A DNA stretch of 64,000 bases from positions 62,001 through 126,000 of the forward strand of contig NW_026782586.1 in the NCBI RefSeq assembly GCF_031769215.1. Direction: 5' to 3'. The notes beneath the pieces were generated by a model. The model did not search any database and was not told the DNA's origin. It was given only the letters and a program-made list of their open reading frames with translations. A program made the translations under genes and the position numbers. This document shows positions 1,453 through 54,691 of the stretch, piece after piece. This stretch comes from Ylistrum balloti (lineage: Eukaryota). How positions within the stretch are numbered: the stretch's first letter is position 1; each line of letters begins with the position of its first letter.

Positions 1453-2215
1453 GTGAAAACTCCATTGCTTGCCAGGCAAAGTGGAACATCGGTGAGTGAA
1501 ATACCGTTGCTACGATGTGAAGTAAAGAGCTCTACAAGAACACTGATTTGAATATTGTCTCATCGACTGCTGCTAAACAGTTATTGACTTTATACAGTGT
1601 TTACTGTTTACAACTCTTCTTGAAATTTTACGAAGACAAACTGCATGCTCGCTGCTGCGAAGAAAATGATGTAAATACTGACAGTGATTTGAATTGATAG
1701 CAACACTTATTATTAATTTCAAATTAATTGTTCCTGAATAACTTTGATTGCTTATATTGTACAATATGCGGAGAACTTTACCTGATGACATTGTACAATC
1801 GATTACGAACAACTTGTGAACTTTGTGTGCTGTTATGGCTTGTTACCTATATCTGCATTATTTTGCGAAGAATTCTGCGTACTGCGATGCTGATTGGATG
1901 TCGTGATTCCATGAAGAATACCTGTTTGTGAAAATTGCTGATTCCAGAACTGTTTTCATGGAACGTAAATGAAATTGACATTGTTCCTGCGTCATCCTGT
2001 GATGAACTTTTAAAATGAACTTTAATTGATTAATATTCTAATAATTGCGAACTGCTTTCTGCCAGTATAGCAAATTAGTTAACGAAAACTGGTCACATTG
2101 TTTAGAGTTTGCGACAATCTGTCAGTAGCTAAAACAGCTGGGTATTAATTAGAATGTTTCCTATTTAATCTAATGAAGTAGGAACCAGCACATGTATTTT
2201 AAGGTTAGTGTGATT

Positions 2216-3213
2216 TGTAACACCACTGTGCCCCCGCTCGCGTTGTGTTCTCGAAGAAAAAAGCCAAGTCCAAATTCCTTTCTACTTGTTGTTTATATAT
2301 AGCACAGTGAAGTCCACAAGAAGGCTCGCTCCCTATCACGCTTCCGTAGAGTCAGTCCCACAACCGGAAGTTGTCCCTTTGGCATCCCTAGATCCAAGTG
2401 CAATGAGCAGCGAAAACTGCCCAGTATTTATAGGGGAAGCCAAAAGTCGGACAACTCCGCGGGTGGAAATTCCTCAAGAACAATGGTTGATCCTGGCGAC
2501 CCAACCATATCAAGATTCTGTCAAAATGATACCGATTTGGACACAAAATGCAGAATCTTGGCGCCATTTGTTATTGTGTATGGGATAAGTGCTGATGGAT
2601 TGAGGATGCACATTTAGTGCAACGACCGTTGATTGGTCCATTCCCCAATCACAGGAAGCTATTGTCTGGAATGACAATTGGTACTACCAGTCTTCAGACC
2701 CACCGCATATTGGTCTCTATTTACATATATAATAATCAAATACTTAACAATTACGCAGAACCTAACATCTGCTAAATCGGTCATGTTTACCTTACATACT
2801 CATAATGCTGTACTAAGCAACTATATACAATTTACTATCTAAACTATTATTTTCTCATGACCTTGAAATATTTTACGTAATAATTATACAATTATCGTTA
2901 CTCTAACTGTACTGCACTGTTTATATATACACATCACATTTGTCTATATGAATTCTGGATACCATTGTTTACATAAGTCCCTACTTGCCTATGCAGTGCT
3001 GGACATGTAAAGGTCCAATTTGGTGCAATATACTATATACATATTTAACACTCAATTCCTGTTATAAGCTAAATTAAACAACAATATATTCATGAAAATT
3101 ATTATTTTCATATTTAAAATTTCCAACCAACATTATATACAATAAAATACTGCTTCCTGTTCATATAACCATTTCCGGTTTAACAACAGAGTGATCTACT
3201 TGATAGTGTCACA
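2216..3213 (-). repeat. 3' LTR of env-bearing gypsy
   Basis: 998 bp direct repeat of 12012-12990 (one ~19-bp indel, few SNPs); TGTGAC...GTTACA on the - strand. Confidence 0.95.
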
Positions 3214-4024
3214 TCCGTCCCATACAAAAAAGAAATATAGGCGGTACTAAACTACTGACTATATTTCCCAACAATTTTTAACAATATCAAGGCGAAATTT
3301 TGGCGCTGTTCTTTAATACGGACTTTTACCTTTACTTTCTTACAGCTTTCACACGCCAATCTTTCGCATGCTACATGCAAGCATTATTTTAACTATCTAC
3401 TTGAATTAACAAATTATCTATATGTTTATAAATCCCTTACAACGGTTATAATTCATTGTCACTTAATAATATATATACTGAGAATTATTCGAAAGTCACT
3501 CAATCTTGTCCCAATAGTCATCCCACTGTGACCCTCACATCAGTTCATGGAGATATCCCATATAATAATATAGTTCCTTTAGAAACCATCACATTTTGTC
3601 TGGAAAGTTCTTGGAATGTAACAATCCAAATAATGAAAATTCATCTGGAAAGTTCCACCACATTTCCCGTCTTAAAATGTTCATAAGAATCACGAAATGT
3701 TCATAGGAATCCCATCTTCTGTTCTTCAACAGTTAGTATAACAGCTACACATGTTAAATTCACGTGACTTTATCCTTAATTATCCTTCTTGTCACGAAGG
3801 ACATGCCAAAGGGACTAGTTCCCGTCCAGTTCCTTTCTTATATCAGGATAAAGATCCTGTATCACTGTCTTCCTGGTGGATACCAGAGGGTTATTTTTTA
3901 CTGTTTTTACCTCCTCTGCTACTCCACCTGGTGATGAGGGGTTTGCACCGCCCTCAACGTTGTCGTCGTTGTCAGGTTCACCTGACATCACCTGTAAGTC
4001 TTCCCGGTTCCCATTTAAGTTGAG

Positions 4025-5982
4025 TTAAGGTGGGAAGATTGTCAATTCTTTTAAACACAATTCAGCAAGTCGTCTGTCGAAAGTCGAATCCGGTCTAGGG
4101 AAGTCTACTTCAGAAGTGCTGTGGCGATGTAAGCGTGGTACCATTGTAACATTAGATCGCCTTGGTAAATCTTGTGGTACATCAGGCTCTCGACGAGGCA
4201 AATAAGGCATTGGTAAAGAACTCAACTCCAAATCTCCCTTAACAACTGACCTTTTACTATACCTACTATTCCTATAATTTTGACATTTATCTTTTATTTT
4301 ATGCCGAAAGCAATATCCTATCACTAAGAAAGCAATGACTATACTTCCAATTATGAGGTATGTTTGGATAGAATTATCTGATTCCATAGGAACCAATTTG
4401 TGCATATTATCTAGTTCCGAAATCAAAGGATCAATAGGAATTTCTTTTATAGACTTCAACTTTGGAGGGATTTTGATTGAAGTTATATTTGGAAATTTCT
4501 GAGAAAATGGCTTCCATAGTTTAATTGATCCCATAAAGTAATTATGTATTAAGGCGTTAAAGTCATTAGACAAGTTAAAAGTACTTTCATAATGATGAAA
4601 GGATTGTAAGATCATGAACTCATTTGAAGCAGAGCAGCCCTCATTTAAGCTTATAATATCAATGGGACTTTTCGTGCTAAGGCTGTCTAAAGAGGAAGTA
4701 ACAGGACATTTTAGATGAAAGGTCAATGATTATTCTGAAACAACTACCCAGTGTCCATCAGACAAGTGTTGGGCTTGAGGAGTTGAAGTTCTAGCTTGCA
4801 CCACTGTGGTACAGTATTTATCCATATCTTTAATCCATCCCACAAAAAGATATATTATACACATTTCGTTTGACACTAAAGTATATATTGGATTACGAAA
4901 TCTGCAGTATTTCTTGACGCTACCTCCACATTCCTTAACTTCATCAAGAGATAAGATAACAAATTGTGTCTTGGCTTCATTCACCGCCAAGAGGCCAAAA
5001 GATTTGTTTGGTTTGTTTCCAAATAAGGTAATAAAAGACTGCGTGCTCTATACACAGTGAATTTATCTGATATATCAGTCAAAGGAATGGCAATGTCTAC
5101 CATTAAGTCGTCCTGTCCAATCAGGGTTGTACAAGTCACAGTCTTATAAAATGTCCAAAGGTCTACGTCAGGGTCAAAAGGAATTTGCATATTCATACTT
5201 AGCTTACTTTTAACATCAATTAGTAATTTCCTTAGGTCAGGGGGTGCAATAACAGTTGGCGAGAGATGTCCAAGAGACAACATATTAATTTGAAGCTTCA
5301 AGTGGTTTAAGTAATCTCTAGCTAAACCAACTATTTCCTTAGCTTCACTTAAGGCTCTATCTATCTTTGTATACGTATGCAAGTATTTGTCAATATCTTG
5401 AACTGAATGACTAAGATTCATCTCTAACTTCGCTAGATCAGTTAAAGTATCTATTACTTCATTAATATTCTTTCTGTTATTTGCTATTTGGCCTTGAGCA
5501 GTATGAAGGATAGTTAAACTTTCCTTAACAACATGTTGAAGGTGTACCTGATTATTTCTTAAGGTCCTAACATTAGTTTTGATTGTATCAATATCATCTT
5601 CATCTAATGTACCAAAAAGGAAGGACAGTGCCTTACCTACAATTGGAATCAACGCTCTTTTAGTTCGAGTCTGATGTAGTGTTTTTATATTTCTAAGTTC
5701 TTCTTGTTTTGTCACATCGACTTGAGGCCATCTTTTACATTTAGTCGACCGTCTACGAGATTTTGTTTGAATACATTCTTTTACTTTGCATGGTTGTTTC
5801 TTGAGTACTACTGTTTGAGGTTTCCTGATTTTAGCTACAGGTTTCTTGGTATAAGAAGGCTGACATCTTAGACCTAATAATGAACTACGTGAATAATGTG
5901 TATCTATTGGTTTATTACTTTTCAGACTTAAGTTTTCGAATCTACTTGTAAGGGATTCAGTTGGAGGTGCCTTGTAAGCCAT
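4025..5982 (-). pseudogene. env: F-type (class I fusion; baculovirus F/errantivirus-like) envelope glycoprotein, frameshifted into three ORFs
   Basis: Furin site plus fusion peptide RTKR|ALIPIVGKALSFLFGTLDEDD, heptad repeat, Cys-rich ectodomain (4730-4990), N-glycosylation sequons, TM YLIIGSIVIAFLVIGYCF and a cytoplasmic tail (4025-4726). Confidence 0.88.
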
Positions 5983-6431
5983 CGTTCTCCTAAAAACAAA
6001 AAGATAGAAACTTGTTGCTGGGAATCAGGATGTCTTCTTTTACATGAAGTTTTGCCTAAGGTTTTCTTCATCAAGCTAATTCGTCTAGCCGATCTCTGTA
6101 AATTGGCAAGTCCCTTGAAAAATCCAGGTTTAAGGTTAAAATCTAAATCTAGCTGAGCCATTAACATAACATAGGTCCTATTTGTCATTCTAAACACATG
6201 TCTTAAGTGTTTTATACTGTTCACAATGAGTTTACGGGGTTGGAGATTTGCCTGGTTAATTCTATGGTATTTTAAGATTAATTCAGTGACATCTGGTACC
6301 CTAACGTGTAATTTTTGTATCTTTAAGCATAAATTATCTAAGACCAATGCTTCTTGATCTACGTTTATCACAGAAGGATTTGTATCTGCAATCCCCCATT
6401 TGGATGCTGAGCCTTCTTCCTTTCTTGCCAT
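5928..6431 (-). CDS. Unknown 167-aa accessory ORF between pol and env
   Basis: Open frame MARKEEGSASKWG...; its ATG lies 6 nt after the acceptor-like CCTTAATCTGTCTTGCAG (AG at 6439-6438). No family recognised. Confidence 0.5.
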   Translation of the reverse strand: MARKEEGSASKWGIADTNPSVINVDQEALVLDNLCLKIQKLHVRVPDVTELILKYHRINQANLQPRKLIVNSIKHLRHVFRMTNRTYVMLMAQLDLDFNLKPGFFKGLANLQRSARRISLMKKTLGKTSCKRRHPDSQQQVSIFLFLGERWLTRHLQLNPLQVDSKT

Positions 6432-6482
6432 AACTTTCTGCAAGACAGATTAAGGACATTTTACTTGGAGGCTTTTAATACC

Positions 6483-9400
6483 TTATATCTCTAAGCATGC
6501 CTGAAGTAGTTTTATCGTCTTAGCTAATCTAACTTCTTTTGGGGCATTCTTTTCCTTATTGGACTTTCTCTGTTTTCTAGGGAAATCTACAATTTCCTTT
6601 CTACATTCTATTTTTGGGGTTCCTATTTTCTTAATGACATTAACTTCCTTTTCCTCATTAGTACTACTGTCCTCAGATTCAGTTACGTCATCCTCTGTCA
6701 GGTCCTTGTCAACTGACTGATAGTCTGGGAGTTTATACTGTCTTTTGCATTGTCTTAACTGTGTCAATGACATGTCTTCATCATCAGAGTCAATAACTTG
6801 AGCTTTTTCTGCTAATTCGCGAGTCCTAAGACGTTGCCTAAGTTATGTTAGAGGAATATCATCCTCGTCATCAGAATTTGACCTTTCTTTTCGTGTTCTT
6901 TTAATGACCCGTTGAAGTGGCGGGTCCTCCTCTGGTTCATCATCAGAGCTACTTACATCTTCTGGAGGTACTACATAGGTGGACTTCCTCAAAGGCCGAC
7001 CTATATTATCCTTAGGCAAACTCCATTCATCAACATTTGCCAGACGCAAATGTCTTGCATGTGTCTTAGTGACTTCTCCTGTGAGTTGGTTTCTTACCTT
7101 AAAACTCACGGGTCCTGTTTGTTCAACAATCCTGAAGTATAGTGTCCATTTGTTATCAAGTTTAGATGTTCTTTTATGATTTCTTACATATACAGGATCA
7201 CCTACTTTTAAGTCCTCATCCTTGCTATTTCTGTCAGCAAGTTTCTTTTGTTTTTTCTTAGCCTGTTTCAAGTATCGGTGCACTAATACAAAGGACTTGT
7301 GCTACTGTTCTAGTGCGATTCTGTGTAAGTCTTCCCCAACATATCTTCGTCTCGGCTTGAGAATTTTGTCCAAAGGAAGAACAACGTCACGGTTATATAA
7401 CAGCAAGAAAGGCGATGCCTTTGTCACTTCACTGGTGTGAAATCGCACAGCGGCAAGAGTTTGGTTCAAGAAAAGATCCCATGTATTTGTGCTTTCTTTG
7501 ATCTTTTAGCCATTATATCTACCATGGTTCGGTGAAATCTCTCCACCTTTCCGTTTGCTTGGGGGCAGTAATAAGACGTAGTAATGTGATTATGTTTAGG
7601 GCTTCTAGTGTTTCTTTAACTGATTTTGCAATATTCTCAGAACCATTGTCTGATACGATGCTTAAGACACAGCCATATCTTGGGAAAATTTCTTCTAAAA
7701 TGAGATGCACTATATTTGCTGCTGATTTATCAGGTACAGGAAAAGCCTCTGGCCATCCTGAGTACACATCTACAAAGGATATTATGTACTTATTCCCCGA
7801 AAGTGTTTCTGGATAGGGACCTGACAAGTCCATGGCTATTTTTGCGAAAGGGTAAGGAGGAATGTCAGTATCTTGTAGAGGGGGCTTGGGATTAGCACTA
7901 CTTCTCGTCTGACATGTAACACACTTCTCTATGTGCTGGTGTACTTTCTTGTACATCATTGGAAAATAGTACTTCTTACGCATAGTGTCATAAGTTTTAT
8001 CTAGAGCCATATGACCTAAAGACTCATGATGCTGCTTAATCACAAGTTCCTCAAATTCCTTAGGTATGTAGAGCCTTAAGTTTGGGTCATCTGAGTCAGC
8101 GTTTGACAGATAGTATAAGACGTTGTCTACTACCAAGTATCGCTCCTCCTCATTCTTTGTTGCCTTACCATTACTAAGTCTTGTTCGCAAATTCTTTATG
8201 TCTGTGTCATTTTCTTGGGCATCTTTAATGTTAATGTCTTCTGGTAAATCCATATGAGGCTTAATGATGTCATCTGGCGGATCTACTTCACAACTGGCGT
8301 AGTCTTTAGGACGGAAGTAATTGGAGTTCAGGGCACCTACTTCTAAGGTTCTATCATCAACATCTAAGATATCTTGTGCTTCTTCTGGAGCACCTTGAGC
8401 TTCTTGAGCTTCTTCACTGGTACCAGAAGGTTGTCTAGACAGTAAGTCTGCACAACAATTATACCTGCCCTCTATATATTCCACCTTACAGTTATATGCT
8501 GCCACACTAAGAGCCCACATAGACAGTTTCTTATTTGTAGTCTTTTTATCTGAGAAGATGTAACAAAGTGGTCGATGGTCAGTCCTTATTACAAATCTAC
8601 TATTATGTAAGTAATTGTCAAGCTTTTGTAATGCGTACACTACAGCAAAGGCCTTCTTCTCGATTACAGACCACCTTCTTTGTGTTTGACTGAGCTTATG
8701 TGACAAGTAACATATTGGCTTTTCTTCACCCTCTTTCTTCTGCGTAAGACATGCGCCTATGCAAGAATCTGAAGCATCCGTATAAAGGATATAGTCTTGG
8801 CTAGGATCTGGGTGAGCCAGTAATGGTATTACTGTTAGACTTTCCTTAAGAAAATCAAAAGCATTTTGGCACTTTTCTGACCATTTGAATCTTGCATACT
8901 TCTTTGTTAAGTCCATGAGAGGTTCAGCTATCTCGGAAAAATTGGGTATAAATCTTCTGTAGTTATTCCAATAAATCCTCGTACTTCTCTGACACAAGTT
9001 GGAGATGGTAAAGTTCGAATAGCTTCTACTTTCTTAGTGTCGGGTTTTACTCCTTCATCTGTTATAATAAACCCAAGATATTCAGTTTCGGATTGAAAGA
9101 AGCTGCATTTCTTAAGTTTTAACTTGAGCCCATGTTGTCTTAGCTTCCTAAATACTATCTGGATATGTTTAAGGTGATCCTCTGGTGTCTTACTATAGAT
9201 CAAGACATCATCAAGATAGGCAGTAGTAAACTACTCACATTCCTGTAAGACAATGTTCATCAACTCTTGGAACACAGCAGGGGCATTACTTAAACCAAAG
9301 GACATCCTGTTGAACTGGAAAAGACCTCTATGGCAAGCAAATGCTGTCTTAGGTTCACTTTCCTCGTCTAACTGAACTTGCCAATACCCACTCTTCAAGT

Positions 9401-10627
9401 CTAAGGTAGTAAAGTGCTTTGATTGGCCAAGAAGGTTTAAGATGTCATCTATCAAAGGAAGTGGTACTGACATGGGTGTCACAATCTTATTTAGACTTCT
9501 AAAATCGACACACATCCTTTTGCTGCCATCTTTCTTGTCTACAACAACAAGACCAAAGGACCAAGGACTTCTTGACCTTTCAATTACTTTAGCCTCTAAC
9601 ATCTCATCTATGGCTTCATTTATGACATCGCGTTTGTTGAGTGGGGTGCGGTATTCACGATTTCTTATAGGTTTGTTGCTTCCTGTGTCAATATGCATCT
9701 TCACTGTGTCAGTATGACCTAAATCTGAGTCTTTCTTCGCAAATAGGTCTCTATTTCTTTTAAGAAGTTTAATAGTGTCTTCTCTATATTTTTCTGGTAC
9801 ACTTACATCTATAAATCCTCCTTACTGTTGCCATTTTTGTCAGTTACAGTTGCACTACTTATGTCTTTTGTTTCTACAGCTGTTGCCTTCCCTACTACAC
9901 TACCACGTCTTAAGGTCATTGTTCTATTGGTATTGTTAACTAATAAGACTGGTATCTAAAAGGGATTTTTTACCTGAGCTATGCTTTCCTGTAATACTAC
10001 CCCGGGTTCATTATTTATACAAGGTGTCTCTTCACTTTATATTTCAGGAGAAATATTCAGTAATCTTGACTTGGGCACATCAAAGCTTCTAACAAGTTTA
10101 ATATTGCATATGGTAGCTGTTTGTGGTCTTAAGACAGTTTTCTTGGTCATGCGAATTATAGAAGCAATATGTACATCTTCCTCTTAGGGAACATATGTCT
10201 TTCCTATACGCATGCATGCCAAATCAAAGTACATTCTAACGCCATTTTTTCTTAACCAATCTAGTCCAAGAATACAGTTCCTATTCATTCCTTTAACAAC
10301 ATAAAACGTGTGACTTAAGGTCATGCTTCTCATTTGAATAGGAAGTTCAACAGAACCTATTACCTCGATTGGTGTACTACCGACTGTCTGGAGGGTCATG
10401 TTTTCTTTTCTTAATCTTGGCTTCTTTGGAAAAGTCTTAAAAATCCTATCATTTATAAGGGAAACCTCAGCTCCAGTATCTATCAAGACTCTAACTCTTT
10501 GTTTACCTAATTTTATCACAGTTGTACTTGGGTTACCTGATATATTTATTGTCTTAGATACAGGATTACTTGACCTAATTTTCCTCTCTCCGTCGGTTTC
10601 CTTATGGGGAGAGGTTTTTAGTTTAAC
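6483..10627 (-). pseudogene. pol: pol of env-bearing gypsy (PR-RT-RNase H-IN plus charged tail), frameshifted
   Basis: LIDTGAEVS (10184-10519); RMCVDFR and TTLDLKSGYWQ (9231-9704); YTDASD and RTDHRPL; HHESLGH...CVTC; AMDLSGP; VSDNGSEN (7519-8997); GDPVYVRN...GPVSFKV (6843-7283). Confidence 0.93.
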
Positions 10628-11835
10628 TGAGTATTTCTTGGGTAACTACCACTTAGGCGAGGGCAATTTCTTTTTATATGTCCTACGTTATTGCAATGCC
10701 AACACACTAACGTGGGTGTATATAACCGGTTGTTTTCGTGATTGTCTTGTCTTACGTCTTGTCTTAAAGCCTGCACATGATTAGATTTAGGAGGAACTAA
10801 TGGTGTTTTTGCTTGAGAGCTGTTTGTTTGGGTGTGGCTATTGCCTTTATGATTCCTTGGATGTTGGAACCTACTTTGTCTATCCGAATTGTACTGTCTG
10901 AACCTTGGTCTGTCTATAAATGGGGTGTGACCTTGCCATAACATTATCTCTTTTACATCTATAGCATTGTCTTTGTCTTGAATGGTCTATTTCCATAGGG
11001 ACAATTTGTCTTGGGTCGTTGTCAGAATGTCTTGGGACTGTTTTTGGTTCCAATCTTTGGGAATCTACTTTATGAAAGACATCACTTTTATCTTTTCTTA
11101 AATCAAACCGTTTTCTTAAGTTTTGTTCCCTCATTGCTATGCCTACAGCGTCTTCTGAAGTCTGGGGGTTTCTCTCATGACTTTCATTTTAAGGTAGTCA
11201 TATGCCAACCCGTCGCAAAAGGTATTAACTAATTGCTGTTGCACTATTCCCCTATCATTGTCTTGAGCATTAGTGTAAGCGTCTTCAGCTATCTGTAGAA
11301 GTCGTTCTGCAAATATTTGCACACTTTCAGTGTCTTTTTGCCTAGTTTTTCTCAACAAGGCCAGGGCCTGTTGTGAGTCTGTTATCTCAGCAAACCTTTG
11401 CTTTAATAAATTCTTTAAATCCTCCCAACTAAGGATTCCATCTCCTTCCATAGAATCAATGTACCTTTTAATAAAATCACCTACTGACCCCGTACTTGTC
11501 TGGTAAGCTATATTTGGTATGGACCTATTGTCCAACCCTACCAATTTAGCATATTTTTCTATTTCTTTGATCCAATCCTTAAACTTTGAAGGGTCACCTT
11601 CAAAAATCTTTACTATTTGAAACACACCCTGTGCTGTCATAGCCGCCGAAAGACTTTTGAACTGTTGCGCCATGCTTATGAGTACCTCCCCATCATCTTG
11701 AGGAGTCCCTCTCCCAGGGGCACTTGAGGATGGATTTTCCCGAGGGGGGAGTCTTTCATTTAACTGGGGGGTACCTAGGTTAGCCATTCTCTCAGCAATA
11801 CTACTCATTTCTTCATCTGATAACAAGCTAACCAT
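10618..11835 (-). pseudogene. gag: gag of env-bearing gypsy, frameshifted
   Basis: FEGDPSKFKDWIKEIEKYA capsid-like motif (11143-11835); CCHC knuckle CWHCNNVGHIKRNC (10618-10944). Confidence 0.88.
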
Positions 11836-11983
11836 GACGTCATAAGATATCCTACTTCATTACAATTAATAACCTAATTATAAACAATTGAAGATGCCGC
11901 CAAAGGTCAGTGATAAGGTACAAAATGGGAAAAGAGTTCCACCTACCTTATAAGAGCCAATCCAGTTAAGATGTTGTTACTGG

Positions 11984-12001
11984 ATCCTGGTCACGGCACC
12001 A
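11984..12001 (-). promoter_or_regulatory. Primer-binding site, tRNA-His type
   Basis: TGGTGCCGTGACCAGGAT on the - strand, complementary to the tRNA-His 3' end (...GTCACGGCA-CCA); 10 nt from the 5' LTR. Confidence 0.8.
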
Positions 12002-12011
12002 AATCACCACT

Positions 12012-12990
12012 TGTAACCCCACTGTGCCCCCGCTCTCGTTCTGTTCCCGAATTCCTTTCTACTTGTTGTTTATATATAGCACATTGAAGTCCACAAGAAG
12101 GCTCGCTCCCTATCACGCTTCAGTAGAGTCAGTCTCACAACCGGAAGTTGTCCCTTTGGCATCCCTAGATCCAAGTGCAATGAGCAGCGAAAACTGCCCA
12201 GTATTTATAGGGGAAGCCAAAAGTCGGACAACTCCGCAGGTGGAAATTCCTCAAGAACAATGGTTGATCCTGGCGACCCAACCATATCAAGATTCTGTCA
12301 AAATGATACCGATTTGGACACAAAATGCAGAATCTTGGCGCCGTTTGTTATTGTGTATGGGATAAGTGCTGATGGATTGAGGATGCACATTTAGTGCAAC
12401 GACCGTTGATTGGTCCATTCCCCAATCCCAGGAAGCTATTGTCTGGAATGACAATTGGTACCACCAGTCTTCAGACCCACCGCATATTGGTCACTATTTA
12501 CATATATAATAATCAAATACTTAACAATTACGCAGAACCTAACATCTGCTAAATCGGTCATGTTTACCTTACATACTCATAATGCTGTACTAAGCAACTA
12601 TATACAATTCACTATCTAAACTATTATTTTCTCGTGACCTTGCAATATTTTACGTTATAATTATACAATCATCGTTACTCTAACTGTACTGCACTGTTTA
12701 TATATACACATCACATTTGTCTATATGAATTCTGGATACCATTGTTTACATAAGTCCCTACTTGCCTATGCAGTGCTGGACATGTAAAGGTCCAATTTGG
12801 TGCAATATACTATATACATATTTAACACTCAATTCCTGTTATAAGCTAAATTAAACAACAATATATTCATGAAAATTATTATTTTCATATTTAAAATTTC
12901 CAACCAACATTATATACAATAAAATACTGCTTCCTGTTCATATAACCATTTCCAGTTTAACAACAGAGTGATCTACTTGATAGTGTCACA
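12012..12990 (-). repeat. 5' LTR of env-bearing gypsy
   Basis: 979 bp repeat of 2216-3213, followed by the PBS. Confidence 0.95.
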
Positions 12991-13020
12991 GATTGCGTTA
13001 GTATTGGTCTACAAGTATTT

Positions 13021-16000
13021 TTGCCAAAACGTTTCATGCTGATTTATTGGGTAAGTAGAAGTATTCCTAGCATCCCACTCTTTAAGTTAATTGTACGAAA
13101 GTATGCGACGCAAGATGAAAGGTTATCTACAGACATGGAAGTAAGTGTTGATGAGTCCTCTAGCAATACAGGTGAGGTTTCAAAAAACACCGAAAGGGAT
13201 CGAAAACACACTGAAAAAGGGATGGAGTATAATATTAATCGGTGTTGTGCTAAATACCATTCTGCTGTGTCTGCATGGCGCAAGCATGCAAATAGAATAG
13301 AAGTTCTCCGATCAGACTCGACTAATCTGACCGATATTCGATCGGAACGCGATTTGTGCGAAAATCGTTTAACTGATATTTCCGCGACAATATCCCAGCT
13401 TACTCAGTTGTTTGATGAATGCAGAGAAGAAGAGGTTTTCAAACAGTACGAAAACCTAGAACATGAGATGCTGCAACGATATGATGTCATCGAAAGTGAA
13501 CATCAGCATATAATGCGTGACGTCGCTGACCGCATTCGCGAGATCGAGTCTGATAACGCGGAATTGAGTTCGCGACACAAAAGTCGTTCATGTCATAGTG
13601 GCTTCAGATCTGGGTCATGTGGCTCTACTGGAAGTACTTTAAAATCAAGAAGGTCAGATACCGCTGTTAGAGCAGCTGAGCTCAAGGCCAAGCTCAAGTT
13701 CATCGACATTGAGGCGAAACCTAAAGCTGACTTGAAAAGGGTTCAGACAATGAAACAGCTTGACATTGAGCAAGCTAAGTTAGAAGTCATGGACGATTTG
13801 GAGGAAAGTTTATTTTCGTCCAATGTTAAACCTTCACTTAAACTGTTGCCTCGAGAAAGGGTTGAAAGGGACGACTACGTTGAGAAGTATGTACGGGAAC
13901 ATGCGTATAGGCCGGTAGTAACTGAAGATGGTCTTAGCCCTACATCGAACATAGCCACTGCTACTAGTATAATTTCGACAGCTTCAAATGATTCTCGATT
14001 CGGAGCTGCTGTTATTTCAGAACCCGTAACATCCGCTGTTACTAGTACTGTCAATACGGTTAGTGGGGTGTTCCCTAGTGTTAACTTAAATTTAGGTATG
14101 CCATTACTTAAAGGTGTAGCCAGTACGTTAAACCCATTTCCCTGGGAATTTGTGCCAAAAGGCGCACTTCCGTTCCCTACTGCGTATAATAGCGCTCGGA
14201 CACAAACCACGTGGATGCCAGAATCTCAGTATTTGCGTACCGATATGTCGACCAACCACAACGCGTCTAGCAATGCAGCTGATCAGGGATCTGCCACGAA
14301 CCTGCCCTTGCCAAATGTCAGAACAAGGGCTGATGGCACTTGCGAAATCTCTTGCCGAGCAGGTTACTTTAAGTCGTCTTCCGCCCCCAGAACCGAGTGT
14401 ATTTTTCGGAGATCCTCTGCAATATCCTGGTTGGAAGGCCGCTTTCCAGACTCTAATAGAAGAGAGGAAGATACCGTCATCCGAAAGAATACACTACCTC
14501 AAGAATTATCTCGGTGGTTCTGTGAAGGAAGTGGTTGAGAATTACTTTCTGTTGTCAAGCGATGACGCTTATATGGATGGCAAGAACTTGCTCGACGAGC
14601 GATAAGGCGACCACTTTGTTGTAGCTAATGCTTTTCGTGACAAACTCGATAAATGGCCGAAGGTTAGTTCTCGCGATTCCAGTGGGTTGCGAAAGTTTTC
14701 GGACTTCCTCAGACAATGCCTCGCGGCATCGCAGAGCATAGGTAGACTGGACGTTCTCAATGACAGTCGAGAGAACAAGAAGATGCTATCCAAACTCCCA
14801 GACTGGATTGTCACCAGATGGGGAAGAATTGTAAACCAAACAAAGGAAGAAGGGAATAACTTTCCTCCCTTTAAGGACTTTGTAGCATTCGTTCAGAAGG
14901 AGGCGAAGATTGCATGCGATCCAGTCACTTCACTGCAGTCTTTCCGTACAGATCATGGGGATGATTCGAAATCTGCTAAGGTCACAAGACCTACAACAGG
15001 ACGAACGCTGATGACAGAGGCTTCGCCGAAGGAAGCTAAACCCTGTGGAACTTGTATTTTGTGTAAGAATAACCACGATCTGGATTGTTGTAAACAATTC
15101 CTATCCAAACCGTTGGATAAACGTAAGGAATATGCAAGGGAGAATGGTCTTTGTTTTGGATGTCTTGGGACAGGACACATATCAAAGAAATGTACTCAGC
15201 GGAAACAATGTAAAACATGCGCCAAACCCCATCCCAGTTCCTTACATGGCGATCTGCGAAAGTCAAAGCCTAATGACAAAAATAATAATGTTATAAATAA
15301 TACGAACCTTGATGGCGTTAAGGCTCCTGCGTCTACTAATTCCCATGTGCACGCTGCATTCAACAGTACAGGTACAAGTTGTATACCAGTGTATATTTCT
15401 CATTGTGACAACCCCGGAAGGGAGAAATTGGCTTATGCCTTGTTGGATACGCAGTCAGATACTACGTTTTTTCTGGAGGATACGTGTAGATCTCTTGGAA
15501 TTTCGGGTATGTATGTCAAACTTCTGCTTTCTACCATGTATGCAGAAAATCGAGTAGTGGACAGTCGCAAGGTAAAGGGCCTCGCCGTCCGTGGATTTAA
15601 CAGTTCTCTGAGCATACCACTCCCCGATACTTTCACACGAAGCATCATGCCGGCCAACCGAGCCCACATTCGTACACCGGAAAAGGCCAGACAATGGTCT
15701 TACTTGGAGCCTATTGGTGAGCTAATGCCGTTAACCGATTGCGAAGTCGGACTGCTCATCGGATATAATTGTGCGCGTGCGTTGGCTCCGCGTGAGGTAA
15801 TTGCGCCAAGCGACAGTAGACCCTATGGTCAGAGGACTGACCTTGGATGGGGCATTGTGGGTACTGTTGATGGGGCTAGTGTAGAAGACGTTGATCCTGT
15901 TGGCACGAGCCATCGTAGTATTACGTGTACGGTGCCACCTGCTCTATCATCGGGTGATAGCGAAAAGGTTCCTGACCATGTAGTCTTCTCCTTTAGGTGT

Positions 16001-19000
16001 AGTATCAAGGAGATTATTAATCCCGAAGAACTCGCGTTGATGCTAGAACAGGATTTCAACGAACCCAGTGATACCAACGCAACTTATTCGCATGAGGATC
16101 GTCAATTCCTCAACCTGCTGAAGGACGGAATTCACATCGACAACGGACATTATGAGATGCCATGCCGTGCCTTCCTAACAACAAGACGTTGGCACTAAGT
16201 CGACTTAAACAACTGAAGAAACGCTTGGATTCTAACAACAAATACCGGGAGCACTATACTTCTTTCATGGCAGAGCTAATAGGAAAGGGCTTTGCAGAAA
16301 GAGTCCCAGAAGCTGATATCGAGCTTGAAGACGGGCACGAATGGTATATTCCTCATCGTGGTGTTTATCACCCCCAGAAACCGAATAAAATTCGGGTAGT
16401 CTTTGTTCAAGTTCAAGGGAGAATCCTTAAATTCTCACCTTTTACAGGGACCAAATCTTACCAATACTCTTATCGGTGTCCTGTGTCGTTTCCGTAAAGA
16501 GCCGATTGCGTTTATGTGCGACATCGAACAAATGTTCCACCAGTTCAAGGTAAACGTTGAACTCTGAAACTATCTCCGATTCTTGTGGTGGGAAAATGAA
16601 GACAGCCGTGATGAGCCGATTGAATATCGTATGAGTGTTCATCTTTTCGGCGCCTCGTCATCGCCTGGTTGTGCCAACTTTGCCTTGAAACAAATGGCCT
16701 CTGACAACGAAGAGGAATTCGGATCAGATATTGCGAACTTTATAAAGCGTGACTTTTATGTCGACGACGGGCTGAAGTCCTTACAAACTATCGACATGGC
16801 TGTGGACATGATCAAAGGCAGTAAGGATATGTGCGGCAAAGGTGGATTGCGTCTGCATAAATTTCTGTCAAGCTCGAAGGAGGTGTTGAAGCACATTCCT
16901 GAAGAAGACCGAGCCAAGGGACTCGAGGACATTGACGTAGTCCATGATAAACTTCTGTTGAACGAGCTCTTGGCATACAGTGGTGTATAGAATCAGACTC
17001 CTTCCGGTTTCGAGTTGTTGTGAACGATCGCCCGCTGACTAGACGTGGGGTTCTATCAACTCTCTGCTCGGTTTACGATCCATTGGGATTTATCTCTCCG
17101 TTCATTCTCGTTGGCAAACAGATTTTGCAGCAGATGTGCAAGGGTCATGCGGACTGGGACAGTCCACTTCCTGACACTTTGACGACAAAATGGGAGCGTT
17201 GGAGAGAGGACCTGAAGAACCTCAAGAACATTCAGATCAAACGGTGTTTGAAACCTGATGATTTTGGAGATGTCATCTCGACTGAGCTTCATCATTTCTC
17301 GGATGCGAGTACTAGTGGTTACGGCCAGTGTTCTTATATTAGGCTAGTCAACAGTGAGCAACGAGTGCATTGTGCGTTGTTAATGGGCAAGGCAAGGGTA
17401 GCTCCGTTAAAAACCCGTTACGATTCCCCGGCTAGAACTTGTGGCAGCTTTGGTGTCCGTGCGAGTGAGTTCCATGCTGCTTCGGGAACTTACATGCGAC
17501 CATGTTACGCAGTGGTTCTGGACTGATAGTAGTGTGGTCCTGGGATATATTGGGAACGATTCTCGGAGATTTCATGTATTTGTGTCCAATCGCGTAAAAC
17601 AGATTCGGGACCACACAGAGCCATCTCAGTGGAAACACGTCAGCACTAGGAACAACCCCGCTGATGTTGCGTCTCGAGGTGCAACGGCTGACGATTTGGT
17701 GAAGCATACAAATTGGTTAAGAGGACCAGAATTCCTTTGGAAAAACGACCCCTTTGTAGAATGTGATATTTTGGACAAACCCGTTCTTTCCCCGGATGAC
17801 CCAGAGGTTAAGAAGGTTCAAGTGTTTGACACGGTGGTTGAGCCAGCTAGTGAAGGTTCATTACTGGACTGCCTGGAATATTTCTCCGATTGGACGAGAG
17901 CCAAGAGAGCAGTAGCTCTGTGCTTGGAATTCAAACGCATGTTGAGGACCAGGTCTATTCGGAGGCGAAATGTGTCCGTAGAGGACCTTCAGAATGCAGA
18001 GGTGGCTATTGTCAAGCTTGTTCAGGAAAATGCCTTTAAGGAGGATATCGAGCTTCTTCGTGCCTCCGAGATGTCTTCAGATAACTGCGATCAGAAACGG
18101 AAATGTCGTCTCAAAGGTACATCGTCTCTGTGTGGTTTGGATCCGTTCCTCGACGAAAGGGGAATTCTGCGAGTCGGTGGACGTATTCGACAGGGTGAAT
18201 TTAGTACCGAAATGAAGCATCCTGTCATTCTCCCCAGGAAGGCTCATATCACTGAGCTTGTGGTTCGTCATTTTCACCAGATTGTGAGGCACCAAGGACG
18301 TGGTATAACCACAAACGAAATTAGAGCCAATGGCTTCTGGATTATCGGATGCAGCTCTGCTGTTTCGAGTTGTATCTACAAATGCGTAACATGTCGCAAG
18401 CTGCGAGGCTGCTCTCAGGGTCAGAAGATGGCTGACTTGCCTGCAGATAGACTGCAGTCTGAACCTCCATTTACGTTTAGTGGAATGGATCTCTTTGGTC
18501 CCTTCTACATCAAGGAAGGCCGAAAGGAGTTGAAGAGGTACAGTGTTCTATTTACGTGCATGTCGAGTCGTGCCATCCATCTGAAAACGGCAAACTCTCT
18601 GGATACCAGCTCGTTCATTAATGCACTAAGAAGATTTCTCTCTATTCGTGGTCCAGTAAGACAATTGAGATCGGACAGAGGAACAAATTTTGTGGGTGCT
18701 GAGCGCGAGCTCAAAGAGGTTCTTCTGGAACTTGATGATCAGGCGCTTCAGCGGTACCTCTCCGACAAGGGTTGCGATTACATTGGCTTCAAGATGAATG
18801 TACCCTCCGCTAGCCACATGGGTGGTGTATGGGAGAGACAGATCCGTTCGGTCAGGAATGTTCTTGCGTCGTTGATGCACCAGTCTAGTTCCCAGTTGGA
18901 CGACGAGACCCTTAGAATCTTCTTGTGTGAAGTTTCGCTATAGTGAATAGTAGACCACTCACTGTTACTAACCTGGATGATTCACACTCGGTGGAACCTT

Positions 19001-19446
19001 TGACTCCGAATCACTTGTTGACCATGAAATCAAAGATAATCTTGCCGCCGCCTGGTCAGTTCCAGCGGACAGATCTCTATTGCCGTCGAAGATGGCGTCG
19101 TGTGCAGTATCTTGCCAACGAATTCTGGAATCGTTGGAGAAAGGAGTTTCTCCAGAATCTACAAGTGAGAAACAAATGGACTTCTCCAAAGCGAAACGTG
19201 GAAATCGGAGATGTAGTGATCATCAAGGATGACAACTTGTCGAGGAATCACTGGCGTCTTGGCCGTGTCGTCGAGACATTTATCGAAAAGGATGGACTAG
19301 TGCGCAAGGTTAGACTTGCTGTTGGTGTTCCTACGCTGGACAAGCAAGGTAGACGAGATGGTCCAGAGAACTTTCTTGAGCGACCGATACACAAGTTGGT
19401 GCTATTACTCGAGACCGAGGAATTCCCCACCGAGGAGCCAGAGTAG
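13021..19446 (+). pseudogene. BEL/Pao gag-pol polyprotein, several frameshifts and stops
   Basis: EPSVFFGDPLQY gag motif; three Cys/His knuckles (CILC, CFGC, CKTC); protease YALLDTQS; RT YVDDG; RNase H LHHFSDAS; integrase GMDLFGP, RSDRGTNF and GGVWERQI; C-terminal PLTPNHLL domain. Confidence 0.93.
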
Positions 19447-24725: not shown

Positions 24726-25230
24726 ACTCATCTGTATTCCTACAGGAGTTCTTGAACGCCATCTGATGATTTTAGTTATCACAGAGTACTTATAGAAATA
24801 AGCCTTGTAATCACTGTACATGATGAATGTGTATTGTATTCTGGAGAGAAATGGTACAGAAGATATTTGTAGTAGGGGCAGCTAATCTAAGTTAGACAAA
24901 TTCCTTTAATGTAACAATGTTCTCATGTTTTGTAACTTTATTTTGTTAATCTTTTTCTGTTAGTGTTAAAATCAATTTCTCGTTTCTCCCTCTCTAAACC
25001 CACTGAAAAATTGCATGTTGCAATTTTAATTTAAAGGGGCGGATGTTGTGTTGTACTAATGGGTTGGGGGAGGGAGGTAACTCGAATTGATTGGTATTAA
25101 ATCATTGTTTGGTTGAGGTTGAAACTCTTCATATAGAAGGGAGTAAAAAAGTGATGAATAATAAAATTTTGGAAAGGAGATAATTTTCCTCTCACATGCA
25201 GCGCTAACAATCTGTCATTGTAGTTGCAAA

Positions 25231-26067
25231 TGTAATGAAAATTGAAGTATAAGAGTAATGTCCCTTGAATATGACTTGTGTAATGGAAATTGAAGTATAA
25301 GATTTATGTCCCTTGAATATAACTATAGCTAATTACATATTGGTTAATTTGTTCATCTAATGATTTTTGTCGATTAATACAAATGTTTATATTTATGTAG
25401 TAAGATATGGAAAGGTATTTTGTACTATGTTAATAGTTTAGTATGCATCATTTATGGTAAATTAAATATCAACAATTGTCACACCTAATGAAAGAGTTTA
25501 TTAGACATGTAAATAGAAATTACTTTGAATTATTGCGAGATACACAGACGACGAAAGACTTCTTACTAAGCAAGTAACACAGTCATTTGCAACAGGTGGT
25601 AGGTGAAAGTCTGAAATAGTGGCTTTTCCGAAACCGCTTGTCAAGCTGGTGCGAGAGTTGTTTAGTTCTCACCGAAGCTTGGACTTTTGACTGTGGGTAG
25701 CTAGCTATAGGGTGAGGTTAGAACCCGAGCTAGGAACACGAGCAAGGGTTGACTTAGTTGGTAGGACAACCTAGTGCTTAGTCAGGACCGACTAAGTGGT
25801 ATTGCTCGGCGACTAGTTCAGTAGTTGGAACTAGGGTTAGGTGAAGTCACTGGGTGTCGAGCTTGCACTCACGCTCACATGCTAGTCAGAACAGTCTGTG
25901 TCGGGACAGCAGTCCATGTGAATACTAGTTCGTTCGTTAGTTTTATTGTTAACTCAGGTAGTGTTTGCTGTTCCACGCTATATGTATATATCGGCATTTG
26001 TTAGCTAGTATCTCTGCAAGGAATCAGAGACTTACCCACCGTGTGTAAAGCTAGGCTGCACGTTACA
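25231..26067 (+). repeat. 5' LTR of element C
   Basis: 837 bp; starts with a ~48-bp internal tandem duplication; lacks 35 bp present in the 3' LTR. Confidence 0.95.
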
Positions 26068-26071
26068 AAAT

Positions 26072-26089
26072 TGGTGGCAGCGGTGGGAT
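26072..26089 (+). promoter_or_regulatory. Primer-binding site, tRNA-Leu type
   Basis: TGGTGGCAGCGGTGGGAT, 4 nt after the 5' LTR; complement of the tRNA-Leu 3' end ATCCCACCGCTGCCA-CCA. Confidence 0.85.
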
Positions 26090-26339
26090 CTTGCTAGCTT
26101 TCATTTTTTTTATATATAGTATTGTTGTTTGTTTTACCTAGAACTTTGCTGGTTTGCTATGATATATCTATGTTGAAACATGTCAGATCAAGACCAGCTA
26201 TCTTTACAAAAAGATATTGATGCTATCTCTGAGGAGATAAAGCAAATCGAATCTAGGAGAGTCTCTAGACCTGGGCAATGTCGACACTCGCACACCGCCC
26301 ATAAACGTTAGGGTACCGTATCGTGACTCGGGTATCGGT

Positions 26340-29300
26340 ATGCTGCGTTCAGAAAACACGAGTAGCTATAAGAAACTCGGGGCCAGACCGAAACACAGTT
26401 TTGATTTGCACACTACAGAACAAGGTCGTTTGTCTTCAGACATATTGGAGGAAAGTCGACTGACCTTGCCAGAGAGCCCCTACACCCCTTATACTGATTC
26501 AGACAGATACGCTAGTCCTTCTCAGCAAACACCTCCTGCAAACGTCACATATAGACGAAGCAAATTGCCACGCAATTCGTCATTGATGGAGGATCGTAGC
26601 AATCTACAATACTCTTCATCACTGGCTCGTGAAAAGTCTAGTTGTCACAATGCACGAGTTAACCCTGCAAAGTATGCCGGGACAGGTTCCTGGATTGACT
26701 ATCAAGCTCATTTTGAGGCTTGTGCAACTTTAAATAGGTGGACTCCTGAAGAAAAGGGATTAAACCTTGCCGTGGCGTTACGAGGACAAGCGCAAGGTGT
26801 GTTAGGTAACCTAAGGGGTCCTCTTGGTCAAAATTATGATATGCTGGTAAAGTCCTTGGAGGAGCGCTTTTCTCCGCCTAATCAAACAGAGCTTTATAGG
26901 ACACAGCTAAAAGAACGCCGACAAAGAGCTACTGAAACTCTCCCAGAACTGGCCCAAGATATACGCAGATTAACGAACTTGGCATATAACACGGTGCCTT
27001 CAGACGTCAAAGAAACCCTGGCTAAGGAGCAATTTCTTGATGCGCTTGTAGAATCTGATCTGCGAATAAGAACCAAGCAAGCCAGACCAGTAGATTTGAA
27101 CGATGTCCTTCGTCATGCTGTTGAGCTAGAAGCTTATCTTAACTCTGAAAAGAAGATAAGGGAGCAACAGGCTTTCGCCAGATCTATTGACTCTGGTATT
27201 GCGAAAAATGAGAAGGTTTCTGAGAACAAGGCGGCTGAAACAGTAGACCTGGTAGGAATTGAGAAGTTACTTTCTTCCATGCAGAAGTCAGTAAGTGAAC
27301 TTACCAAGGAGGTAAACGCAATGAAGCAAAACAGACGACAGAACCGATTTGCGCGGAGGAGCAATAGTCAGCCAACCGCACAACGATTTACGGACAGAAA
27401 ATGCTATGAATGTGGGTCTCCAAAGCATCTAAAACGTGACTGTCCTAACAAGAAAGGTCAAAGTACTAAGTCTAGACAGCAAGATGACAACGATCAGAAA
27501 CCCAAAGTTACTGTGAATCTGAATAACGTAAAGAAGGAATCTGGTGTGTTCCTTACTACAGAGGTTAATGGGTACCTAATCAGCCTTTTAGTGGATACTG
27601 GTGCTACCGTTAGCCTGTTGTCTGATGAAGTCTTTGACAAGCTTGGCGTAGGCAAACAGCCTGCACTGCAGCCATTGAAGTGTGATGTACTGTCAGCTTG
27701 CGGCTCCCCTCTGGAGATAAGAGGGAAGGCCAATTTTGAATTAGTTATTGGGAGTTTCCGTTGTGCTGAAGAGCTAATGGTTGCAAAGCTGAACATTGAC
27801 AGAGTACTTGGTCTTGACTTTCTGCGTAAGTATGGCTGCATTGTGAACATGACAGACGGTTCTCTTCAGATTGAGGAAAAGAAGCACGACATTAAATTTG
27901 AAGGCTTAAGTGGGTGCTACCGAGTTAGTGTGTCAAACAACTCTAAGATACCTCCACAAAGTGAAGCAGTTATTCACTGTACTGTAACCATTCCTGATGG
28001 AAAGACAGCACCTACAGGCCTCGGTATAATTGAACCTCTAGGTACGTTCCTGGAATCAGACAGAGGTGTAGTTGGGAAAACTCTGGTTACAGGTAGTAAC
28101 CAAGTACCGGTAAGATACATGAATCCCTCTTCTGAACCACAAACGTTGTATGCAGGAACGGCTATTGGACAATACACTGTGGTAAATCACGTCAAGGCTC
28201 TAAGTAGTGTAAAATGTAAGAAAGGAGAGTCTCTTCCATCACATCTATTGGAGTTGTTTGAGAGAAGTAAAGAGTCTCTCTTACCTCAGCAGACAAGTCA
28301 GGTTCGGGAATTGCTTCTAACGTACTCTCCATTATTCGCTGAAACTGATAAGGATCTTGGGCGAACTGACATTATCAGGCATAAAATTGATACAAGAGAC
28401 GCAAGACCGGTGAAGCAACCGTTGCGACGAATGCCTGCACCCATGGCCGACGAAGTTGACAAACAGGTAGATGACCTCTTGGAAAGAGATGTAATTCAGT
28501 CATCGACAAGTCCTTGGGCATCAGGTGTAGTGCTCGTTAAGAAGAAGGACGGAACGACACGATTTTGTGTCGACTATCGGCGACTAAATGCATTGACAGT
28601 GAAAGATGCGTATCCTTTACCGAGGATCGATCAGTCCTTGGATCAACTTGCTGGTTCTAAGTGGTTCTCCACTTTAGACCTCTGTTCGGGCTACTGGCAA
28701 GTTGAAGTAGATGAGAGCTCTCGGGAAAAGACTGCATTCTCCACAAGGAAGGGTTTGTTTGAGTTCAAATTAATGCCATTCGGGTTGTGCAATGCACCCG
28801 CTACATTTGAACGAGTCATGGAGACTATCCTTGCTGAACTACATTGGCAGACCTGTCTAATATATCTGGACGATATCATAGTGATGGGAAAATCATTCGA
28901 AGACATGATCAATAACCTGACACAGGTGTTTGACAAACTACTTTCAGCAGGTCTCAAATTAAAGGCCAGAAAATGTTGTTTGTTTGCTAAGCAGGTAGAA
29001 TTCCTTGGTCACATTGTGTCTGAGGAAGGATGCGCTACTGACCCAAAGAAGATTAAGACAGTCCACGAATGGCCTGAGCCAGTAACTGTCTCTGAAGTTA
29101 GATCCTTCCTCGGTCTTTGTAGCTATTATAGAAGATTCATAGAGTCATTTGCTGCAATTGCAAGACCTCTTCACAGACTGACCGAGAAGTCAAGAGCTTT
29201 TGTCTGGACCAAAGAATGTCAGGAGGCATTTTATGAGTTGAAGTGTAAACTGACAAATGCACCAATTCTCGCACATCCCAATTTTACGGACTTATTCATC

Positions 29301-31233
29301 CTGGACACTGACGCAAGCAACAGTTCAATTGGTGGAGTTTTATCTCAAATACAAGACGGGGTTGAACAACCAATAGCGTACGCAAGTAGAGCACTCACGA
29401 AAAGTGAACGAGCGTATTGTGTTACAAGAAAGGAACATCTTGCTGTTGTCTTCTTTACCAAATACTTCCGGAACTATTTGTACGGGAGACGGTTTCTGCT
29501 GCGTACTGATCATAGTTCGCTGCGATGGCTGACTAGCATGAAGGAGCCAGAAGGACAGTTAGCCCGCTGGCTAGAGGTCTTGTCTACGTATGACATGGAA
29601 ATCCAACATAGACCTGGAAGGCTCCATGGGAACGCTGATGCGTTAAGTAGGATGCCTTGTAAAACCCCAGATGTTCACCCAACAGGAATTTGTTGAAGCT
29701 ATTCAAACAGTGAAGCCGTCTAAGTTATCGATAGACAGTACTTACGAATCGGTGACTTTCAGCAAGCTGCAAAAAGAGGATCCTGATTTGTCAGAAGTAA
29801 TGCAAACAGTTGAAACTGGAACTCAACCAAGTTATGCGGAAATCAGCACAAATAATGCCTTTGCCAAATCACTGTACAATCCGTGGAGTTCTCTAGTAAT
29901 AGAGAATGGTGTGTTGTGTCGGAAATGGACCTGCACTGGGAACAAAGAGGCAAAGATCCAGGCCGTGGTTCCTAGTAAGGAACGGGTGAAGGTACTTCAG
30001 CAGTGTCACGACAGTCGAACAGCCGGTCATCTAGGGGTAACAAAAACTCTATCTAAGATAAGACAGAGTTACTACTGGCCGGGGATACAACAAGACGTCC
30101 AACGCTACATTGCCGGTTGTGATAAGTGTTGCCGTAGAAAGAATCCTCAAAAGACAAAGCGTGCTCCTATGCAACTGATACAGGTTGGGTATCCGATGGA
30201 ACGAATCGCGACAGACATCCTTGGCGAACTTCCGATGACAAGGCAAGGCAATCGGTATATTTTGGTTGTGTCCGACTACTACACCAGATGGACAGAAGCC
30301 TTCCCTATGCGCAACATGGAATCTGTTACAGTTGCAAAGCTCATAGTTGAGGAAATTGTAGCAAGGTATGGAGTACCAAATTCTAAACACTCCGACCAAG
30401 GAGGTCAGTTTGAAGGAAAATTCTTTACTGAGATGTGTCGACTTTTGGGTATCAACAAGACTCGCACGACACCGTACCACCCGCAATCGGACGGGATGGT
30501 CGAGCGTTTTAATAGATCACTCGCTACCATGCTGAGCGCTTACGTGAACGAGTCACACACAGACTGGGACGTGCAGCTTCCATATGTTATGATGGCCTAT
30601 CGGTCTGTCGAACATGAAAGCACGGGTTGCACACCGAACAGTCTGATGTTGGGCCGAGAGGTCAGCACTCCTCTTGATCTGATGTACGAGATGCCAGTCC
30701 CAATAAAAAGCATACCTCAAAATGACTGGGTGTGGGTCCTCCAAGAACGAATGGAAAAGACACACGCGCTTGTCCGAGAAAGCACACAAAATGCTATGCA
30801 ACGGCAGAAAAAGTATCACGATCGGAAATTGTACTGGCAATCATTTGAGCTAGGAGATCGAGTTTACGTATTCTTTCCGAGGAAAGAAGCCGGACAATCG
30901 CCGAAATTTGCATCGTATTGGAAAGGGCCATTCGATGTTATCGAGAAAATCAATGACGTGAACTACAAGGTCAATTGTGGCCAAAAGAATCAGCCACAAG
31001 TCATTCACGTTGACCGCATGCGCTTAAAGAAAAGCCAGCTACTATCCCATGAAAGATCAGACCTTGACGAACCTCTTTCTGATAAATATGAATGTTGCTC
31101 CGATACCGAGTCTGCAGAATCATTTAGTGATGCTACTGAAAGCGAGGACGAGCATGATTTTTGCATGGGTCGTCCAAAAAGACTTAAACGCAAACCATCA
31201 AAGTTCGGTGACTATGTCATGACCTTGTGCTAA
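26340..31233 (+). CDS. gag-pol polyprotein of element C (1118 aa + 520 aa; one frameshift near 29680)
   Basis: Gag PAKYAG...WIDYQAHFE; CCHC CYECGSPKHLKRDC; LVDTGA; YLDD; DTDAS; HDSRTAGH...CDKC; TDILG; HSDQG; VERFN; GPF motif. Confidence 0.92.
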
Positions 31234-34803: not shown

Positions 34804-47809
<13,006 letters not shown>

Positions 47810-54669: not shown

Positions 54670-54691
54670 TGCCAAAGTTAACATTTAAAAA

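Follow-up and report, generated by a model that had tools for sequence, protein, structure and literature searches.

Two open reading frames between pol and env in a scallop Ty3/gypsy retroelement with an F-type envelope

The 64,000-nucleotide stretch of DNA analysed here (the window) probably contains one damaged copy of a scallop Ty3/gypsy retroelement that has been spreading recently. The element has the order LTR-gag-pol-ORF-X-ORF-Y-env-LTR, and its two extra ORFs are likely to encode accessory proteins made from spliced RNA and possibly regulating the RNA of the element. What is new is the two accessory ORFs and a spliced copy of the family, while the lineage of mollusc gypsy elements with an F-type env is already known. 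An earlier note on this DNA had described an endogenous Ty3/gypsy element with an F-type env, a description borne out by the gag-pol domains, the LTRs, the target-site duplications and a match to the Pfam family Baculo_F; it had overlooked the two extra ORFs and had taken the start of ORF-Y for the start of env.

The window copy and its relatives in the genome

The element occupies positions 12990-2216 on the minus strand of the window (Table 1). Its gag lies upstream of pol, and the domain order PR-RT-RH-IN is that of Ty3/gypsy (Metaviridae) elements; LTRs with TG...CA ends, a tRNA primer site and a target duplication, all Ty3/gypsy features, are likewise present. The two LTRs differ by 18 mismatches and one gap. 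Relative to all three sister copies compared, five or more indels shift the frame within gag and pol. The primer-site pattern was matched five times in two loci, each time inside a tRNA-His(GUG) gene. One stretch of the assembly, G000:C1069:19296-46930, has the tRNA-His/primer-site motif at intervals of 3.34 kb, which suggests a tandem array, either of a tRNA gene unit or of a truncated element.

Table 1. Features of the element and their positions in the window.
Feature	Position	Strand	Remarks
Target-site duplication, downstream copy, 4 bp	2212..2215		Same 4 bases at 12991-12994
3' LTR, 998 bp, TG...CA	2216..3213	-	18 mismatches and one gap relative to the 5' LTR
Likely PPT, a short purine-rich tract abutting the 3' LTR	3214..3225	-	From sequence; presumed function
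F-type env remnant, residues 107-743 of the family env	3815..5706	-	Frameshifted near 4990; stop codons at 4730-4732 and 4025-4027
Env transmembrane segment	4297..4360	-	Hydropathy and model helix 560-588 of sister ORF
Furin-type site, then predicted fusion peptide	5593..5667	-	The motif of the earlier note
Junction of the 724-bp deletion at a 10-bp repeat	5698..5707	-	ORF-Y joined to env in frame
Accessory ORF-Y, 5' part	5707..5982	-	About 92-95 of 215 codons
Splice-acceptor-like site before ORF-Y	5990..6010	-	Putative; top ad hoc score in sister L029 (rank 1/640 AG sites)
Accessory ORF-X, 139 aa in sisters	6015..6431	-	Reads on to 5928 in the window copy
Splice acceptor before ORF-X	6438..6460	-	Joined to the leader donor in the C6 copy
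Fragmented pol (protease, RT, RNase H, integrase)	6483..10645	-	Several frameshifts
gag in pieces (Retrotrans_gag, zinc knuckle)	10618..11835	-	Pfam
Splice donor in the leader	11941..11949	-	Exon ends at 11947
Primer-binding site complementary to tRNA-His(GUG)	11984..12001	-	Same 12-mer in a table of PMC13524379
5' LTR, 979 bp, TG...CA	12012..12990	-	
Target-site duplication, upstream copy, 4 bp	12991..12994		Same 4 bases at 2212..2215

The host had been supposed to be a mollusc, and COX1 from the mitochondrial contigs of the assembly places it among the scallops (Pectinidae). The best named matches are all scallops, at 85-100 %, followed by a related family at 72 % and by other animals at about 61 % or less. 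Among 41 env matches, six bear a species name, and all six come from mussels or abalone.

The limits first given for env, 4025 and 5982, do not hold at either end. Alignment with the sister copies rules out the ATG at 5982 as the env start, that codon being the start of ORF-Y, and 4025-4027 is a premature stop, with the homologous frame ending at 3815. Relative to seven of nine sisters, the window copy is missing 724 bp at the 10-bp repeat, a deletion that takes out env residues 1-106 (the signal peptide and most of F2) together with the 3' half of ORF-Y. A splice event was ruled out as the source of this gap, since GT-AG ends are absent and the 10-bp repeat sits at the junction. The env also carries a frameshift and an internal stop (Table 1). 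The window copy is dead, and a secreted, anchored Env cannot be made from it. Since the deletion happens to join ORF-Y and env in frame, yielding a 333-aa ORF, the fusion might be taken for a functional or co-opted gene, or for an assembly error; either is very improbable, for the fusion ORF lacks a signal peptide and ends ahead of the Cys-rich region and TM, its junction is seen in one of ten copies and is located at the 10-bp repeat, and an in-frame outcome is expected by chance for one deletion in three.

The element seems to have integrated at the beginning of a BEL/Pao-like element (window 12961-19446, with ORFs read by eye), which is nested in turn among other LTR elements (repeats 879-1452/19655-20229 and 25229-32247). 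Additionally, the window contains another gypsy element at 26241-31233, with a largely open gag-pol, LTR-like repeats and no obvious env, and two ORFs of 180 and 695 aa at 54127-56776 that probably belong to a DNA transposon or other mobile element, as well as an exon at 44143-44637 that we take to resemble the splicing factor U2AF large subunit.

Across the genome, the env query returned 86 matches, with ten at 96-100 % (family A, which includes the window copy) and seven at 71-73 % (family B). Target duplications of 4 bp flank all nine copies examined (the window copy and eight sisters), whose LTR pairs are 95.4-100 % identical, over a partial LTR only in three sisters; copy C1092 was left out of this test. 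Family A is young. The search for intact copies that had been proposed found an unbroken env with a signal peptide in only two of the ten, and deletions touch the pol-to-env interval in five of the ten. The earlier note had named an env not linked to this pol in other copies as grounds for refutation; in seven of the nine sisters, pol or the leader is followed by the spacer and then by env, so the env is linked to the same pol or leader elsewhere.

The 86 matches fall into several families, and many of them have frames open over 670-830 aa; the scallop genome is thus rich in env-bearing elements. Among them, L069-L074 constitute a second, distant env-F lineage that is separate in both the RT and env trees, and the pol of L073 ends with a chromodomain-like match (E 1.6e-4, below the cut-off), resembling in this a clade described in PMC13524379. 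One locus of the assembly, L081 (G000:C1253), holds a bacterial-type cbb3 oxidase gene cluster and likely represents a contaminant or symbiont contig.

The envelope and its known relatives

The motif from which the F-type assignment had been drawn, located at 5667-5593 on the minus strand, matches exactly the pattern given for it in the earlier note, and that pattern has one match in the six frames of the window and none in 100 shuffles. However, the exact pattern is satisfied by only two of 44 aligned env relatives; it is therefore not diagnostic, and the assignment rests on the Pfam profile rather than on the motif. Baculo_F matches window 4984-5982 above its curated cut-off (E 9.8e-10, 38.1 bits versus 24.1) and scores 68.6 bits (E 5.6e-19) against the env of sister L002, an unaltered, unbroken ORF of 743 aa that was used for the profile and fold tests. 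The parts said to follow the motif, namely a helical heptad region, a Cys-rich region, a TM (about 4360-4297) and a tail, are all present. Within L002, the env has a hydrophobic N-terminus (a signal peptide by hydropathy), a single furin-type site at 120-123 with a predicted fusion peptide after it, a TM spanning about 558-584 and a long proline-rich tail of about 155 aa, and the env alignment contains five invariant residues and four invariant cysteines.

A profile of 44 env sequences matches PDB entries 9w4d (E 4e-12) and 9w4c (E 1.5e-10), both named 'fusion protein'. Structure prediction, which had been put forward as a check, agrees: the Foldseek matches listed for the AlphaFold2 model of L002 env (pLDDT 68, pTM 0.53) are all RSV/paramyxovirus F proteins, with a best E of 1.7e-10 and modest TM-scores (TMq 0.30, TMt 0.48). 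The env is an F-type protein and a predicted class I membrane fusogen. It has its Pfam family and predicted fold in common with baculovirus F and pneumo/paramyxovirus F, whereas it is set apart from them by an identity of 9-13 % to the solved F proteins among the matches listed, and by its proline-rich tail.

The suggestion that the lineage might be new has not stood, because gypsy elements with F-type env are already catalogued in molluscs, as part of the 'ancient errantiviruses' that PMC13524379 describes across metazoans. In supplement 1 of that work, at least 45 of the 46 mollusc rows are ENV_F; among these 45, ten have a tRNA-His primer site and none comes from a scallop, though scallop genomes were screened. 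The catalogued mollusc elements share with it the gag-pol-env order, a furin site and fusion peptide in F-env, LTRs and a multicopy state, but the filter applied in PMC13524379 allows at most 1000 bases from pol to env, compared with a gap of about 1.2 kb in scallop families A and B. Accessory ORFs go unmentioned in the main text of that work, but the words 'accessory orf' occur once in a longer version, where its authors or reviewers may have raised the matter. Under the operational definition in PMC13524379, an errantivirus has, inside its LTRs, a gypsy gag-pol to which an ORF resembling env is linked, as is found here, and intact ORFs, which are lacking in the window copy, with unbroken frames occurring in other copies of the family. 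The Drosophila errantiviruses or insect ERVs (gypsy, ZAM, Idefix) have the same Env-F family, and the fly env-F is made from a spliced subgenomic RNA (PMC12992720). Unlike them, the scallop element has a mollusc host and a Gag with a zinc knuckle (zf-CCHC), which is described as missing in fly errantiviral Gag, so that it lies outside the insect errantiviruses in the strict sense (insect host, Gag without zinc knuckle). Its env also differs from that of Drosophila errantiviruses in having its own ATG and signal peptide.

ORF-X, ORF-Y and a probable spliced copy of the family

In families A and B, two ORFs that belong to no known family and are conserved at the protein level separate pol from env. 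In both, the pol-to-env spacer of about 1.2 kb holds ORF-X (139 aa in family A and 150 aa in family B) and ORF-Y (215 and 210 aa, respectively). Elsewhere, env-F loci have env within about 260 bases or less of pol where both ends are present; the X/Y profiles matched none of 23 other env-F loci, and a metagenome scan gave four loci with X/Y in none. Because families A and B group in a single RT clade (100/100), with families that lack X/Y ORFs around them, and are sisters in the env tree, a single gain of X/Y would be the simplest reading; the rows of the RT tree are local or nameless, and L059 and L066 were omitted as having too little RT. Three sibling env-F families (L060:1436-1633, L061:8412-8639 and L063:8312-8623) have a different feature, a related basic ORF of 66-104 aa between the primer site and gag, which has no Pfam match above the cut-off and is unrelated to X or Y. 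The R-P-R-G stretch in these leader ORFs presumably resembles an AT-hook.

ORF-Y is open at 213-215 aa in six of the seven sisters that hold it. Between families A and B, its products are 40 % identical (blastp E 3e-41). At the DNA level no more than 123 bp can be aligned; synonymous sites are close to saturation (pS 0.71), and pN is 0.41. Antisense frames of the interval also match between the families (E 2e-16 and 4e-9), far below the sense frame. Identity between the families reaches 65 % in the env ectodomain and 82 % over the first 800 aligned codons of pol. Searched against 1.84 billion proteins, the ORF-Y profile gave four matches, of which P0164 was dropped as an artefact of a 22-fold repeat. 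The other three, P0162 (E 2e-39, full-length), P0163 (E 3.5e-7, and recovering ORF-Y when used as the query) and P0165 (E 7.7e-5), are plausible outside homologues, as judged by sequence similarity.

For ORF-X, the families share 30 % identity over 112 aa (E 3.9e-7), with codon-position values of 0.51/0.59/0.28, the third position being the least conserved, and only three of the six sisters that hold its start have it at full length. In a second organism, one contig, at about 90 %, spans ORF-Y and runs on into env, and a further contig, at about 85 %, covers ORF-X. On the ORF-Y profile, the ORF-X of family A reaches 20.4 bits, where the best of 963 scored shuffles gives 9.5, but the ORF-X of family B only -0.3 bits; the hhalign X-Y probability is a non-significant 2 %. 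ORF-X may be a diverged duplicate of ORF-Y.

The ORF-Y protein is basic (pI 9.9-10.3), with a Lys/Arg-rich N-half of low structure and a helical C-domain. None of the four X/Y proteins has a membrane segment, their highest 19-residue hydropathy being 0.74-1.33, and the single transmembrane segment of a FAST-like sORF2 fusogen is thus lacking from X/Y. Pfam has no match to either ORF. For ORF-Y, nothing credible emerged from PDB sequences, BFVD or VIA (the highest Z was 5.2, with a helical model of poor quality), an atlas search gave no usable match, a word-index search supported none of 58 candidates, and none of 100 pattern matches in viral contigs was supported as ORF-Y. As the structure model of ORF-Y is poor (pLDDT 52.6, pTM 0.23), it lends no backing to any function.

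Splice signals are arranged around these ORFs. Family A has a consensus donor about 55 bases past the start of the primer site, and in family B the donor lies at 97 bases in all four loci compared. An ad hoc score places the AG sites ahead of X, Y and env at ranks 2, 1 and 5 among the 640 of family A copy L029, and at ranks 115, 24 and 1 among the 701 of a family B copy; the AG before ORF-Y is altered in three of the five sisters compared. In one genomic copy (the C6 copy; L037, G000:C6:49368-59367), the gag-pol region has been removed precisely between the leader GT donor and the ORF-X AG acceptor, six bases before the ORF-X ATG, and this copy has its own LTRs and a 4-bp duplication. The join, which has a 3-base ambiguity, is present in one of nine leader-holding copies. 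The simplest reading of this one copy is that a spliced RNA was packaged, copied and integrated.

A working model, its alternatives and its significance

Taking these observations together, full-length RNA would very probably give Gag and Pol, be primed by tRNA-His and be integrated with a 4-bp duplication, and the leader donor would be spliced to acceptors before ORF-X, for which there is support, and before ORF-Y and env, for which there are motifs. Env would then, somewhat more probably than otherwise, be cut at its furin site and let particles enter other cells, by analogy with Drosophila. Much more tentatively, ORF-Y might bind the RNA of the element and balance its spliced and unspliced forms, and ORF-X is possibly the diverged duplicate of ORF-Y. 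Retroviral Rev and Rex are accessory proteins made from spliced RNA and needed for export of unspliced genomic RNA. Similarly, CERV of the Caenorhabditis elegans element Cer1 is an accessory protein from spliced RNA that is required to export unspliced genomic RNA (PMC10309623), and together these serve as the working model, by analogy, for ORF-Y. With regard to production from spliced RNA, which Rev, Rex and CERV have in common, one GT-AG-joined genomic copy was found for ORF-X, and for ORF-Y an acceptor motif only. No sequence or fold match of ORF-Y to Rev/Rex-type factors was found in Pfam, PDB, BFVD or VIA, where the comparison involves a shallow alignment and a poor model.

Instead of acting on splicing or export, the same two proteins might work against silencing by the host (through piRNA or chromatin) or switch on the LTR promoter. 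This role in host conflict is to be held about as tentatively as that of an RNA regulator. It would suit basic, soluble and fast-evolving proteins (40 % identity, versus 65 % for the env ectodomain and 82 % for the pol codons compared), and retroviral accessory genes are known in such roles (PMC3383448), but X and Y match no known suppressor or DNA-binding family in Pfam, PDB, BFVD or VIA; the present observations accommodate both roles. Far less probable is that the spacer is captured, decaying sequence with X and Y as passengers and the C6 copy an ordinary deletion. In its favour, ORF-X is broken in three of six sisters, half of the ten copies have deletions touching the pol-to-env interval, and related families transpose without X/Y. 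Against this stand two ORFs that remain open and protein-similar across synonymous saturation, the full-length outside homologue of ORF-Y (P0162), and a join in the C6 copy that falls exactly at a consensus donor and a top-ranked acceptor six bases before an ATG.

A further question concerns the use of Env, since the family might have retained env and yet move only within germ cells, with Env unused for entry into other cells. According to PMC13524379, cell entry is demonstrated for Drosophila elements only, and loss of env is described as common in fly lineages (PMC12992720); an unbroken env with a signal peptide is also scarce among the copies of family A. Nevertheless, such a restriction is unlikely given that the ectodomain is under purifying selection between families A and B (pN 0.23, pS 0.72) and that the furin site, fusion peptide, cysteines and TM are kept, and entry into other cells is the reading preferred here.

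Other small accessory ORFs have been described in gypsy elements. The MDG1 group likewise has two, sORF1 and sORF2, which precede gag and replace env, sORF2 being a membrane protein (PMC11952523); in contrast, X and Y are located downstream of pol, occur alongside an env and lack a membrane segment. As of 2012, accessory genes were given as 'not shown' for errantiviruses (PMC3383448), and a literature search found no report of accessory genes in the interval from pol to env in a gypsy element that bears an env. It is conceivable, at somewhat less than an even chance, that a mollusc gypsy lineage independently became a 'complex retrovirus', with an accessory pair of a new family that arose by duplication, is alternatively spliced from one leader donor, and controls RNA splicing and export or blocks host silencing.

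On its own, the envelope would do no more than put a scallop on a list that already exists. Accessory genes are a mark of complex vertebrate retroviruses, and for this reason the extra ORFs matter more than the env. A new small protein family in a young element and a genomic fossil of a spliced RNA may together offer a direct handle on how invertebrate retroelements export their unspliced RNA or evade piRNAs.
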